NCBI GenBank assembly: GCA_012295275.1
Contig: CM022676.1
Location: forward strand, 11,532,001 to 11,596,000
Length of the DNA stretch: 64,000 nucleotides
Source: Chrysomallon squamiferum
Taxonomy: Eukaryota; Animalia; Mollusca
Direction: 5' to 3'
A model generated the notes under the pieces. It was not told where the DNA came from. It did no database searches and worked only from the letters and a program-made list of their open reading frames with translations. Made by a program: the position numbers and the translations under genes. This document shows positions 5,825-54,064 of the stretch, in pieces. Numbering within the stretch: position 1 is the stretch's first letter; every line of letters starts with the position of its first letter.

Positions 5825-8800
5825 ATGTGGCAGCCATATAAACTTAGGTTCATTTTATGTCTACAGCTAAGTCTAAGGTATGTGTTTTTGGTTATATGTA
5901 TAGCCTTTTCATTTCACGTGTACAAACTGACCAGTTAATGAACTTCCTCATTCAAATATATGTTCTGTGAAACGAAGAAGAAGAATAAAAAAAAAAAAAA
6001 TAAATAAATAAATAAATAAATAATAATAAATGGTGAAACATTTGGGCTTTTCAAGAAAACATGTTGGGGATCATTCATAATAACTGATATCAAGTTCTGC
6101 TGTGCTGCCTTGAATACTCGTCAGCAAGTTAACAAAGTCTTAATAATTAGTATGTATGTATATAGGTTATTTAAGTATATGTATGTATGTATAGATGTGT
6201 GTATGCACATATGTATGTATACGAATATGTATCTATTTGTACACACACACACACACACAAACCAAGCAGTAGTCAGATATATATAATATAAATGTATATA
6301 GTTGAGTGTAGAAAGACATATTACAACAACTACTGTTTATTTTATTCACAGTTTCCTTATAATATCAGCGGAGAGCATTAACAACACAGAAATCTGTGAC
6401 AACACTGACAATACTGAGAATACAAAGACCATTGAAAACAGAAATGTCACTGACAATACTGACAATAGAGAGAGCACTGAAAACAGGAATGTCACTGACA
6501 ATACTGGCAGAACACTAACAACACTGCCAAAACAACAGAGAGCATTGAAAACAGGAATGTCTCTGACAATTCTGACAATAGACAGAGTACTGATGTCATT
6601 GAAAATACAATTGATAATTGAAAACAGGAATGTCACTGACAATACTGACAATAGAGAGACACTAACAATACTGCCAGTACTGACAATAGAGATACCACTG
6701 AAAAAAATGTCATTGATCATTGAAAACAGGAAGAGCACTGACACTGACATTACTGACAATACACAGACCACTGAAAACATGGATGTCACTGACAATACAG
6801 ATACCACTGAAAACAGGAATGTCACTGACATTACTGACAATACAGACAATACCACAGACCACTGAAAACAGGAATAATGTCACTGACAGTACTAACAATA
6901 CTGACAGTACTGACAAACTGAGGATACAGAGACCACTGAAAAACGGGACAATGTCACTAATAATACTGACAATACAGAGACCACTGAAAACATGGATGTC
7001 ACTGACAATACTGACAACACAGATACCACTGACAAAACATTACTGACAATGACCACTGAAAACAGGAATATCAATGACAGATGACCACTGACAAACAGGA
7101 ATAACACTGACATTACTGACAATACAGATACCACTGAAAACAGGAATGTCACTGACAATAGAGAGAGCACTAACAATACTGACAATACTGAGAATACAAA
7201 GACCACTGAAAACATGGATATCACTGACAATAGAGAGAGCACTGAAAGCGTAGGTGTATGCAACTCACAACACTATTTAGGTAGGAAACCCAAAACAAAC
7301 AGATATTTCAATTTTCTTTAACGTTTGATTACACTGAATCACTTACCAGCCTTCACTATTCTGAAATGTGTCTAACCACCATAACTGAAATTTTGAAATC
7401 TCTAACTTCTCAAAATCACCATCACTATGAATACAATCACAAAAATCACTATCACAACCTGTTACTGCTGCTTTTATTACCAATTCTAGTTTCCTTTACT
7501 ATAACTACCACTATCATTAATAAAACTGTTATGATGTTGATTACTACCACTACTGTTATTACAGCTAATAATACTACTAGTATCAGCACTATTACTACTA
7601 CCGCTGCTACCTCTAATATTACTAGAACTACTAAAGCTACCAGCACCACTATTACTAGTACTATTACTACCACTATTATTTCTGCAGCTACAACTATGTC
7701 TACTACTATTACTGTTACTACCTCACATTGTATTGCTGTTGTACTACAACTACTACAATTACTTCTGTTACCTACAAAACAAAACAGTACTTCTACTTTT
7801 ACTGCATTAACGCCGGTACTATCAATATTATTATTATTATTATTATTATTATTATTATTATTATTATTATTATTATTATTATTATTATTATAAAACAGGA
7901 GATAAATTTTTCTACGAAGACGTTCAAGAGGACTGTCCATTTCTCAGAAAGACAAGTGTGGTCAGAGATATGCCAGTAAGATTTGTTTTCTTAAGACAAC
8001 AATTGTAATCAGAGATACGTTGTCTTCTAAATATTTTTCTTTCTCCGAATAAGTATAATAAGTAACACGACAGTTAGATTTGTCTGTATAAATATATATA
8101 TTTCTTAGAACTTCAAATACAGTCAGAGATATGACAGTAAGAGTTGTCTCTGTAGACATGATAATTTCTCAGGACAACAGTCAGAGATACAAAGTATTTG
8201 TCTCCCAGTGTTTGTTTGTCTTTTTCAGTTTAACTTTGTCTCCATTTTGTTCTAGTTACAAGTTAACATTTGTTCATCTACATCTTTCTGTGTTTATCCT
8301 TCTTCGTTTATCATTCTTTCTGTTTCTGTCTCTACTTTCCTCAATAGTTTTATATTTATATATTGGATATTTAAATAGTTTGTACTATTTGTACATGTAG
8401 ATAAGTGTTTGTATATGTAAACAGTTTGTTGTGTTTATATATGTAGATAGGTGTGTATATTTTAAATCTGCATTTATATATGTAGATATGTGTTTTATAT
8501 TTTTATATTTGCTAGGTAGTCAGTGATGGTTCAGAAGAGGACATGGCAGAGCTAAGTTTGCCGCCAGGTTTTGAGTTACGACATTTCGAAGAAACCTGGA
8601 ATATTGGAGTTTGGACAACACAGTTCTTTCCCAGTGGAACACGATTTGGTCCGCTCATTGGAGCTGTACGCATAGAGAAGATGAACGTTTTGGAAGACAG
8701 ATTCCAGGTGAAAGGAAATAGGGAACAGTGATCAAATGATATTTAAATAAGTAAACTAATTGTATACATGCTAACTGACACATATCGATTGTAAATTAGG

Positions 8801-11800
8801 AAATTAGATTTCTTACTACAAAACGTTTTGTATATATTACTTTTTTTTAAAAGATTGTTTGATTACCAAGCTGATATATATTTTTAAATCTTATTTTAAC
8901 TAGAAGCAAAACAACTAATTATAACAAAATATACAATAAAATGTTTCCGGTCAGGCAAAGATCTGAACTGGAAGATTATCAGTTAATAGTTACATTTTAA
9001 AACGTTTTGTTGAAAGTTACTTTAGTAATAGTTTCATAAAATTCAGGTCCGGTATTATGTGAATAATGAACCTAAATTTTTGTCAAACTGGTTGAGGTAC
9101 GTCATGTGGTCACCCGCTGTTGCTGATAGCAACCTCGTCAGACGTAGTGATGAGTCAAATATATATTACTACGCAGTGAGAGATATCCAGCCAGGAGAAC
9201 AACTGAAACTGTGGGCCGGATCACTCTTTGCCGAGAGTATAGGTCAGCCAGGATCTTGTAGAAATATTAAACATGACGGTAAGTACAAACAGCAAACAGT
9301 AATGACAACAACTGCTAATACTACTACTACTACTACTGCATCTATCATTACTACTACAAATACCTCTAGAGCATGTATTAGTATTGCTATGACTACTACT
9401 ATGACTAACATGAATGCTTCTAAGAGTTTTACTTCAACTAAGACTTCTAGTGTAACATTACATACACTACATTATTTCTTTTTATCTTTTAAATTGATTT
9501 CTTTTTTTTTTTTTTTTAAGAGTCGTGCTGGCCATTTTTTTATCACTGTGAAAAAGGATCATGTTTGATTGACAGCTGCTCACTGGAGGAGGGCGTGGTT
9601 TTAGAACATCTTGAAATGGAAGAAGAGATGAAAGTAAAGGAGGATGAGAAAGGTAAGTAATTGCTGTTAGTAAGTTAGTAATAATAACACTATTGTTAGT
9701 AAGTTAGTAATAATAACACTATTGTTAGTAAGTTTGTAATAATAACACTATTGTTAGTAAGTTAGTAATAATAACACTATTGTTAGTAAGTTAGCAAATA
9801 ACTTCTATTTTTCAAGATATCGATGCTTTGCGATTCTTGAGCACACCAGAACTCAAATTAACTGAGTGGTGACTCATAGATGAAATGTTTTCTTTCAGCA
9901 CACAGACAGACACACACACATACACAGAAACACCACACAATACACACACATACAACAGAGACAGCAACAACATACGAACACACACAGACACACAAACACA
10001 CACACAAAAATATACACATGCAAGTTTGAACTTGAAGAAACGTGTCGCTCATTATTACTTGCACACAGCAAGATTTGGGTGGAATGGGTAAACACAAAAC
10101 CACTCTGCTATCAAAATTATTTTGTTGCCATATTCATACATTTCATTTCAGCAACTGGCTACAGCTCATATCCTGACCTTTTTGAACCTTTATATGTTGT
10201 TAGAAACATTAAGGTAAATAAATAATTAAAATTGTTGTCTTCATGTTACAAGCAAAAATAGTGTGAGAAAATCAGAGACAGAGCATTTCTTAATTTTATT
10301 ATTGTTGTTTTTCAACATTTATTTGTTTATTTACATTTAGTCAGTGCTGTGTACGACATTACTTTTATACAGTGCTGTGTATGACTACGTTTACATAGTG
10401 CTGTGTATGAGATTACATATATACTGTGCTGTCTATGATATTACATTACACAGAGCTGTGTTTGAGATTACATTTATACAGTGCTGTGTATGTGATTACA
10501 TTTATACTGTGCTGTCTATGAGATTACATTTATACATTGCTGTGCATGACGTTACATTTATTTAGTACTGTGTATGACATTACATTTATACAATACTGTG
10601 TATGACATTACATTTATACAATACTGTGTATGACATTACATTTATACAGTACTGTGTATGACTACGTTTATACAGTACTGTGTATGACTACATTTATACA
10701 GTACTGTGTATGATATTATATTTATACAGTACTGTGTATGAGATTACATTTATACAGTACTGTGTATGACATTACATTTATACAGTACTGTGTATGAGAT
10801 TACATTTATACAGTACTGTGTATGAGATTACATTTATACAGTACTGTGTATGACATTACATTTATACAGTACTGTGTATAATATTATATTTATACAGCAG
10901 TGTTTTATGACAACATGTATATGATATTACAGTATACAGTGCTTTTGTACATTTGCTCTTTGTTACAAGAATGGTTTGTGATGATTTAATTATATGGATT
11001 ATGATGGAGATTTTTGTAAAAATGTGTTTATGACTGCAGCTACCAATGGATGGTTCTGTAAAAGACAGAGCAATGAGGACTGTGCCTCCGTACATCACAA
11101 TAAAACAATCTAACATAAAAGGAGCTGGTCTCGGTGCGTTTGCCGCACACGATATCCCCAGCAGAATGAGATTTGGTCCGTATGAAGGTCTTAAAATTGT
11201 CGACGTTATGAACAGTGGAGTAAAAAGTTATGCGTGGAGGGTTAGTAAACTGCTAAATAATAATAAACAGAAAAACAAGAACAACAAGAGTAAATAAATC
11301 AATAAATCAAACAGAAAATAAAACAAGGAGGAGAAGAAGAAGAGTGACAACAACTATAATAAGGATAATGACGATAATAACAAGAAAATTAACGAACATA
11401 ATTAGTAATATTGGAGAATACAGTAGACTGTAAGGCTTTAATTTGCAAAAAAAAAAATAAACTAAAAAAAAAGCAACACAAACAAATGAGAGTTCAACAT
11501 TTACAAATCTGTTTGTTGGAAAAGAAAACAATAGTTACGTAATAATACTGATGCATATTAGAGAACACCACAGCAAACAACAGTTGTACAATTAATTGAA
11601 TGTTTACTGTAACAAGAGTCAACCCTGTTATCTCGATTTACTTCTTTGTTTGCTTTTCAATGTAAATGTAAATTATGTTTTACTCGAATTTTAAGTGGCA
11701 AAAATGTTTTCATTTATTAATTCCACAGTGTACCTCGTTTTCCTACATCTGTCGTTTTTTAAGTGATTACTTTGTGTTATCCTGGAAATATTTACGTGTC

Positions 11801-53800: not shown

Positions 53801-54064
53801 ATAGTAATCTTATAAACATTTAAAAAAAAAAATTGATAATAATAATAATAACCACCAGAACAACAATAACAGTTCTAAATACAAAATGAAAATAAAGCGA
53901 AGTACTAGGTACTACTAATAATAATTATAATAAAATGTTATTATTATTATTATTATTATTATTATTATTATATTTTCTTTTTCTCAGAACCTTTCTGGCC
54001 GTTTTTCTTCATTTGTTCGAAAGGAAACTGTGCGAATCAGCTGACTTGTCCAATAGAGGAATAA
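47864..54064 (+). CDS. Gene F: putative secreted double PR/SET protein lacking the repeat expansion, intact, 454 aa by hand-splicing
   Basis: Exons 47864-47913, 48164-48219, 48448-48524, 48718-48912, 49672-49903, 50928-51059, 52393-52478, 52704-52904, 53129-53387, 53988-54064. The frame is open throughout. N-terminus MWLILQRFLIVLFQLLSLILLPSG-TD is strongly signal-like. Domain 2 has ELLTWFG. Confidence 0.9.
49281..49492. repeat. Direct duplication of an approximately 100-bp intronic segment in gene F intron 4
   Basis: aggagtcaggaattgtgtagtactacataaaac...cacatcacactttcgagt occurs twice in tandem. Confidence 0.88.

Follow-up and report, generated by a model that had tools for sequence, protein, structure and literature searches.

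What would a PR/SET domain do behind a signal-like N-terminus? PR/SET domains are textbook nuclear chromatin enzymes, and the PRDM proteins that carry them are nuclear. The question is raised by a 64,000-nt stretch of the genome of the mollusc Chrysomallon squamiferum (GenBank assembly GCA_012295275.1, contig CM022676.1, positions 11,532,001 to 11,596,000 of the forward strand), hereafter the window, which holds a tandem array of six genes (A-F) for proteins with two PR/SET domains of the PRDM9 type. The predicted location of these proteins is the opposite of what the PR/SET fold is known for. The reading favored here, at a probability of roughly 45%, is that they are secretory-pathway proteins in which the second PR/SET domain (PR2) is likely an S-adenosylmethionine (SAM)-dependent lysine methyltransferase and the first (PR1) a degenerate binding domain. 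All coordinates below are positions in the whole window.

Six co-linear, head-to-tail paralogs were located on the + strand between 5825 and 54064 by tblastn with the open frames of the first copy, as the first-pass annotation of this DNA had described. The window is AT-rich, with ~ 30% G+C beyond its first 4 kb. Splice sites were placed using alignments between the copies together with lists of AG and GT sites, and the resulting gene models are as follows.

5825-12667, + strand: gene A; exons 1-5 at 5825-5877, 6352-7280, 7899-7975, 8516-8707, 9047-9278; exons 6-10 at 9521-9652, 10152-10213, 11040-11240, 12133-12394, 12591-12667
14605-21038, + strand: gene B; exons 1-5 at 14605-14657, 15110-15939, 16380-16456, 16991-17182, 17526-17757; exons 6-10 at 18021-18152, 18803-18864, 19779-19979, 20559-20820, 20962-21038
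23693-29451, + strand: gene C; exons 1-5 at 23693-23745, 24203-24785, 25617-25693, 26226-26417, 26563-26794; exons 6-10 at 27019-27150, 27612-27673, 28185-28385, 28896-29157, 29375-29451
30240-38948, + strand: gene D; exons 1-5 at 30240-30292, 31672-33671, 34122-34198, 34721-34911, 35290-35521; exons 6-10 at 36369-36500, 36705-36766, 37214-37414, 38232-38494, 38872-38948
~41281-46092, + strand: gene E; PR1 at 42844-43041 and 43231-43485; WPFF module at ~44042-44146; PR2 at 44955-45157 and 45593-45850; tail at 46018-46092
47864-54064, + strand: gene F; exons 1-5 at 47864-47913, 48164-48219, 48448-48524, 48718-48912, 49672-49903; exons 6-10 at 50928-51059, 52393-52478, 52704-52904, 53129-53387, 53988-54064

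Genes A, B, C, D and F share a common 10-exon structure with GT-AG borders and matching phases. This structure had been attributed to all six copies but did not extend to gene E, where the 5' end could not be placed; a scan of gene E for a signal-like first exon yielded low-complexity artefacts only and no credible first exon. Gene E is a divergent copy in which exon 8 lacks one base and the phase of the exon-6 donor does not match. As assembled, two of the six copies are open end to end. Gene B encodes a 705 aa spliced open reading frame (ORF) running from ATG to TAA, and gene F, in which exon 2 lacks the repeat, one of 454 aa. The earlier statement that each gene splices in frame therefore applies to these two copies and fails for the remaining four. 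Gene A (2217 nt in total) is in frame overall, with seven in-frame stops in its exon-2 repeat and open exons 3-10. Exon 2 of gene C (583 nt) introduces a net -1 shift, and exons 3-10 are open if read alone. Gene D has a fully open exon 2 (2000 nt, 666 codons), but one base is missing from exon 4 and exon 9 contains one base too many.

The encoded proteins are ordered as a hydrophobic N-terminus, an acidic repeat, a zinc-knuckle remnant, PR1, a Cys-rich WPFF module, PR2 and a second WPFF module. In both domains the second-half exons matched the Pfam families PRDM2_PR (PF21549) and SET (PF00856), and the first-half exons matched PRDM2_PR only. Scores for the window exon halves reached 95.6 bits against a cut-off of 27, with 17.5-31.7 bits for first-half exons scanned alone; the relatives, scanned whole, scored 99.7-252 bits. 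Both halves of both domains were thus recognized, which upheld the assignment of two PRDM9-type PR/SET domains. No zinc-finger family, and no KRAB, SSXRD or C2H2 match, was found by Pfam search in the window exon pieces scanned or in the full homologs, and the ORFs end 26 codons past PR2. With two PR domains, no fingers and no basic cluster, the proteins fall outside the usual PRDM definition of a nuclear protein with one PR domain plus zinc fingers. Pfam, alignment and a tree of PR domains agreed with the proposal that a PRDM9-type fold had been duplicated within the protein, is without C2H2 arrays and had been expanded in tandem.

A WPFF[YF]xC-x4-C-x4-6-C module follows both PR domains in all window copies. 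Each gene does end in a Cys-rich tail and a stop, as first described, but the feature is not a tail alone. In alignment, exon 3 (FFYEDVQEDCPF...) matches the last part of the pre-SET zinc knuckle of PRDM9, and exon 7 corresponds to intact C-x2-C knuckles before PR2 in two relatives from Gigantopelta. From these alignments the repeated unit is read as knuckle, PR/SET domain and Cys module, occurring twice per protein. The WPFF module was also considered as the pre-SET zinc knuckle itself and rejected because two of the retrieved relatives (given here under P numbers), P0007 and P0158, carry both modules side by side.

The available part of Baker et al. 2017 (PMC5519329) names Y276, Y341 and Y357 of PRDM9 as catalytic. 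Alignment of the relative P0001 with human PRDM9 (4ijd_A) placed Y276 in FGPYEG, Y341 in IFYRT and Y357 in VWYG. All three tyrosines are present in PR2 of genes A-E, within the motifs FGPYEG, IYYY and TWYG, and the NW.RY.N motif is kept with them there and in all three Gigantopelta PR2 domains. PR1 of A-F keeps Y341 only. In A-D and F the PR1 motifs read FGPL.G and LWAG or LWTG, without Y276, Y357 or the Asn of RYVN, and in gene E they read FGPVDG and AWFG. Catalysis by PR2 is argued on the grounds that PR2 has kept the tyrosine triad since before the two species split, whereas its PR1 twin has lost residues of it. The structure was modeled on P0001 rather than on a window protein (AlphaFold2, 41 aligned sequences, mean predicted local distance difference test (pLDDT) score 66). 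In that model PR1 (residues 60-210) exceeded pLDDT 85 and PR2 (285-430) ranged from 74 to 93, except for a loop at 342-370 below 50. The best Foldseek match of the model was the PRDM9 SET domain 4c1q_A (2.3e-18, target TM 0.82).

Exons 1-2 of genes A, B, C, D and F encode the hydrophobic N-terminus. The N-termini quoted in the first-pass annotation were reproduced exactly for A, C and F; the one quoted for gene E (MSVLIPVLFLMSVNSKLTSS) was not reproducible, and no signal-like start was found for that copy. N-termini were called signal-like from hydropathy and layout. Maximum 12-residue hydropathy within the first 35 residues was 2.35 for A, 1.70 for B, 2.46 for C, 1.78 for D and 2.88 for F, compared with a median of 0.16 in a reference set of 166 PR-domain proteins that start with Met and are 250 aa or longer. 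Six reference proteins reached 2.0: three from Gigantopelta, one from Lineus longissimus, a transcript-derived protein and a sheep fusion model, the Lineus and transcript-derived proteins both having a signal-like start. The layout of a signal peptide (charged n-region, hydrophobic core of 7-15 residues, small residues before the cut) fits A, C, F and the Gigantopelta proteins. The Gigantopelta N-termini, MRVKPLLLLLSVTSLCS, MNSRLCFTLLCIYACVHG and MISNLKLLVVRYLVYSLLEG, are signal-like and unrelated in sequence to those of the window copies. Since the feature is kept and the letters are not, three full-length relatives lend independent support to the signal-peptide reading, which is weaker for B and D. 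No second hydrophobic segment was seen in B, P0001, P0007 or P0158 (19-residue windows below 1.6), which suits a cleaved signal better than an anchor.

Composition points the same way. The PR cores of the family contain 0-1 Cys, the exception being domain 2 of P0007 with 3, compared with a median of 4 in 194 ordinary PR cores, none of which has 0. The presumed mature chains, given assumed cleavage sites, have 10, 10, 12, 12 and 14 Cys, all even. Cys-free PR cores and even Cys counts would fit an oxidising compartment. The proteins have a pI of 4.2-6.1 and no basic clusters, and their C-termini are not KDEL-like.

Exon 2 carries the acidic repeat.

31672-33671, + strand: exon-2 acidic repeat, largest copy (gene D), found by Tandem Repeats Finder (TRF)

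The TRF period is 27 nt in B and D, 18 nt in C and ~ 72 nt in A, with no repeat in F. The repeat is composed of N 24%, E 15%, D 15%, I 15% and T 14%, with a pI of 4.05, and it matched no Pfam family. In gene B the joining frame of exon 2 runs for 276 codons with 0 stops, compared with 65 and 9 stops in the other frames; in gene D it runs for 666 codons with 0 stops, compared with 147 and 14. The only frame without stops is therefore the one in which exon 2 connects exons 1 and 3, and on this ground coding is argued to extend upstream of the exon-4 Met. The same conclusion is drawn from the ratio of nonsynonymous to synonymous substitution (dN/dS) in exon 3, 0.22-0.45, and from the lack of conservation of that Met, which begins MAELSLPPG and is Arg in gene E and P0001. 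The repeat (15110-15939 in B, 31672-33671 in D) has 23-24% Asn and 16-19% Thr plus Ser. It contains 0 N-x-S/T sequons in B against 10.4 ± 2.6 expected from residue shuffles, and 1 in D against 30.9 ± 4.5; repeat copies are not independent, and this avoidance is taken as a hint only and not used as evidence. Within exon 2 of gene D, at 32300-32400, the sequence that ends the exon also occurs internally (DEFEIKYSQDYFG), and the repeat begins anew after it (MKINEIFENTD...); the entire body of the exon has been duplicated in place with the frame kept.

Comparison between copies showed moderate constraint on the coding sequence. Across exons 3-10, dN/dS was 0.44-0.54 for all six pairs among A, B, C and F. 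By region, over five pairs, it was 0.54-0.74 in PR1, 0.36-0.52 in PR2 and 0.16-0.56 in the linker exons. Introns of B and F are essentially unalignable (54-68% identity with 56-88% gaps), while their exons differ by dS 0.29 and dN 0.135. Exons so much better kept than introns, together with these dN/dS values, show that the array exceeds chance. Two nucleotide-level features recur at the gene borders.

5652-5659, + strand: TGACGTCA, a palindrome of the cAMP response element (CRE) type upstream of exon 1 of gene A; also at 14413 (B), 30044 (D) and 47614 (F)
12662-12670, + strand: stop codon of gene A overlapping AATAAA (GGAATAAAT); likewise at the ends of B, C, D and F

The palindrome has 11 matches in the window against 1.09 expected, and four of them precede the ATGs of A, B, D and F by 173-250 nt. 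The AATAAA overlapping the stop codon is a putative poly(A) signal.

A profile built from twelve second-half PR exons was scored against 1.84 billion representative sequences and gave 2825 hits at E ≤ 0.001. At least two matched stretches were present in 20 of the best 150 of these hits, and 16 of the 20 were retrieved. The best match was P0001 (468 aa, 6.4e-56), and P0007 and P0014/P0158 have the same build. Among 272 retrieved proteins the WPFF motif was confined to six Gigantopelta sequences (P0001, P0007, P0014/P0158, the isoform P0151 and the fragment P0086). Within the best 150 of the 2825 matches and the 272 proteins retrieved, the same build was found only at four loci of the deep-sea vent snail Gigantopelta aegis: LOC121386784 (XP_041373733/732), LOC121385797 (XP_041372519), LOC121386925 (isoforms X2 and X3) and the fragment XP_041373100. 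Other multi-stretch matches were fused tandem PRDM9-like gene models with zinc fingers, or came from decapods and Lepidoptera and had two PR domains but no hydrophobic start. A word-based search with P0001 returned, beyond Gigantopelta, only one-domain PRDM9/7-like proteins (40-47% identity) and catfish fusions. A query with P0001 residues 208-300, the WPFF linker, gave two candidates and only P0001 itself, which is weak evidence of absence given that this search needs shared 5-residue words. The ESM Atlas returned only generic PRDM7/2 clusters, and a search for longer homologous proteins with the PR1b exon of gene A returned nothing.

The Gigantopelta proteins resemble those of the window in having a signal-like N-terminus, two PR/SET domains, a WPFF module after each and no C2H2 fingers. 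By Pfam, each of the three full-length proteins contains two or three PR stretches and the fragment one, and zinc fingers are absent. Unlike the window copies, they lack the acidic exon-2 repeat, two keep an intact C-x2-C knuckle before PR2, and PR1 of LOC121386784 keeps Y276. All four loci lie on one 53.39 Mb chromosome. Gene E is the copy closest to LOC121386784 (P0001), at 56-71% identity by tblastn. In a tree of 38 PR domains, rooted at the midpoint only, domain 1 of E grouped with domain 1 of LOC121386784 and the domain-1 clade of A, B, C and F (branch of 2.12 changes per site). Domain-2 sequences grouped together (support 90/95), with E paired with LOC121386784 (97/88), and 22 ordinary PRDM9-like rows formed their own group (89/92). 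Since domains 1 and 2 cluster across species, the internal duplication predates the split between Chrysomallon and Gigantopelta. Gene E is the conserved copy, and A-D with F are a younger expansion with a strongly diverged PR1.

RefSeq names three of the four Gigantopelta loci "uncharacterized protein" and the fragment "set-17-like". A literature search, with supplements left aside, yielded no publication on animal PR/SET families that are secreted or have a double domain, and the accessible portions of the PRDM evolution papers PMC4760075, PMC10451705 and 10.64898/2026.09.07.749791 describe no such family. The first-pass annotation had known of no animal family described with this architecture. 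No named family was found, but the build is not unique to Chrysomallon, as the Gigantopelta RefSeq models show.

These observations would be accommodated by a tandem birth-and-death family with a predicted cleavable signal peptide, whose products would enter the endoplasmic reticulum (ER) and likely be secreted or lumenal. PR2, with Y276, Y341, Y357 and NW.RY.N kept, would likely still be a SAM-dependent lysine methyltransferase, and the likely targets would be lysines of co-secreted proteins, methylated in the lumen of the ER or Golgi. PR1 of A-D and F, on its very long branch and without Y276, Y357 and the Asn of RYVN, would likely be a non-catalytic binding domain. The Cys clusters would form disulfides, and the acidic repeat would serve as a variable cation-binding or spacer region. 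To our knowledge, extracellular or lumenal protein-lysine methyltransferases that modify secreted proteins are not a known class in animals. It is possible, though doubtful, that a molluscan lineage moved a PRDM9-type histone lysine methyltransferase into the secretory pathway, with its catalytic core duplicated, its free Cys purged and a signal peptide added, and so produced enzymes of this class.

Several observations count against secretory-pathway enzymes. As assembled, four of the six copies (A, C, D and E) carry stops or frameshifts, and a dN/dS near 0.5 would reflect moderate constraint only. The joining of exons 1-2 to exon 3 is a prediction from phase compatibility and open frames. 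Arg lies inside the hydrophobic core of B and D, which have the weaker profiles (1.70 and 1.78), and in gene F the hydrophobic stretch (19-residue window 2.38) is long enough for a membrane anchor. Genes B and F encode no N-x-S/T sequons, an uncommon condition among secreted proteins. The even Cys counts are not independent, since the proteins are related and their cleavage sites assumed, and the P0001 model is silent on disulfides versus zinc, the N-terminus and both WPFF modules falling below pLDDT 50. PR2 of gene F has Phe at the Y357 position (Y357F). Finally, we know of no SAM pool established in the ER or Golgi lumen of animals or outside their cells, which weakens the catalytic part of the reading in particular.

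The doubtful supply of SAM beyond the cytosol of animals also speaks for regarding these proteins as secreted or lumenal non-enzymes. Their PR folds would then be a peptide-binding or structural scaffold in a matrix, mucus or egg coat, and the repeat, highly acidic and variable in length, would have the main function in binding cations or minerals. The loss of two of the three catalytic tyrosines from PR1 of A-D and F, and of Y357 from PR2 of F as well, agrees with this, as do PR1 dN/dS values of 0.62-0.74, which fit fast-evolving binding surfaces. A main function in the repeat sits poorly with the intact copy F, which has none, and the retention of the tyrosines and NW.RY.N in PR2 of A-E and of three Gigantopelta proteins, set against their loss in PR1, points to selection on catalytic residues. 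A secretory family without catalysis is considered unlikely, though it is the main rival.

Less probable again is that these are ordinary nuclear or cytosolic PR proteins, with hydrophobic exons 1-2 that either stay outside the translated product or do not act as a signal. PRDM relatives are nuclear, and the weak profiles of B and D, the broken exon-2 repeat of A and C and the missing sequons of B and F would agree with such proteins. Against this, the splice phases fit, the joining frame of exon 2 is the sole open one (276 codons in B, 666 in D), promoter-like motifs lie upstream of exon 1 and the exon-4 Met is not conserved. Signal-like starts of unrelated sequence also recur in three full-length RefSeq models of a second species, and basic clusters are absent and the PR cores are without Cys. 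That the array consists mostly of decaying duplicates without present function would explain why four of six copies are interrupted as assembled, but some of the breaks sit in repeats or base runs, where assemblies probably err. B and F are intact, D keeps its 666-codon open exon 2, exons are better kept than introns with dN/dS below 1, and relatives have been retained in a second species, so that decay is regarded as very improbable. Secretory-pathway proteins with a catalytic PR2 remain the reading that we favor on the sequences at hand.

If this reading is correct, lysine methylation would occur within the secretory pathway of animals or extracellularly, and where the SAM comes from would become a question. 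Alternatively, if the proteins are secretory without being enzymes, the SET fold would have been re-used as an extracellular binding module. The family also shows that PRDM9-type genes have produced lineages beyond recombination control, with rapid tandem turnover. The reading is directly testable, as B and F are small intact genes and relatives exist in a second species.

Further features of the array were recorded at the nucleotide level, the most conspicuous being the start of exon 8.

11040-11206, + strand: opening 167 nt of exon 8 in gene A, where PR2 begins; identical stretches in B, C, D and F start at 19779, 28185, 37214 and 52704

The copies show 0-1 differences per 170 nt here, and the first 97 nt of exon 8 in gene E (44955-45051) are also identical to the others. 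The introns upstream differ (unrelated in F), and elsewhere the exons of B and F differ at an estimated ~ 14% of sites. Exon-confined gene conversion or nucleotide-level constraint could explain this identity; the RNA fold of the 167-nt stretch was ordinary (z -0.12). More TGACGTCA palindromes precede the exon-9 acceptor of C (28859-28866) and F (53115-53122) by 7-30 nt, and the corresponding position in the remaining copies reads ATGACGTA. Intron 3 of gene C (25652-26171) contains ~ 8.8 repeats of a 59-nt unit that copies the 3' end of exon 3, its donor and the first intron bases, so that additional donor-like sites recur in series. Directly after the exon-6 donor, A (9665-9794) and B (18165-18410) carry a 29-nt tandem repeat with many GTAAGT-like motifs. 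The array is flanked by a C2H2 zinc-finger gene with internal peptide repeats of its own (- strand, 199-3318) and by a multi-exon aspartyl-protease gene (+ strand, ~ 58.9-62.7 kb). A hydrophobic stretch encoded near 63400, taken from the ORF list, may be a membrane anchor of the latter.

Among known systems, the H3K4/K36 methyltransferases PRDM9/PRDM7 gave the best sequence and fold matches (4ijd_A, 5.6e-33; 4c1q_A, 2.3e-18), with 40-47% identity over one PR domain. The window proteins share with PRDM9 the pre-SET knuckle remnant and the catalytic tyrosines of PR2. They differ in lacking KRAB, SSXRD and the C2H2 array, in having two PR domains with Cys-poor cores, and in having a signal-like N-terminus where PRDM9 has nuclear features. 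Two knuckle-PR units also occur in proteins, unnamed in databases, of decapods (Procambarus, Penaeus and Panulirus; P0005, P0006, P0012 and P0013) and Lepidoptera (Vanessa and Iphiclides; P0009 and P0019). These have neither a hydrophobic N-terminus nor a WPFF module, their tails are long and of low complexity or basic, and their double PR is probably an independent duplication. Closer in predicted location is the Lineus longissimus protein XP_064643457 (P0131, "PR domain zinc finger protein 1-like"), which combines a signal-like N-terminus with a knuckle and one PR domain and lacks C2H2 fingers. It differs from the window proteins in its single PR domain, its C-terminal PLAT/LH2 domain and the lack of a WPFF module, and it falls on a long branch among the ordinary PRDM9-like rows of the tree. 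It may represent another, independent instance of a secretory-type protein with a PR domain. Outside animals, the BacSETs of diatoms carry ER signals. Although they belong to another kingdom and another SET subtype, and are likened to the window proteins in principle and not by homology, the report on them links SET enzymes to a compartment that is secretory and forms mineral, and describes their co-expression with genes for the cell wall (10.1101/2020.11.23.393678).

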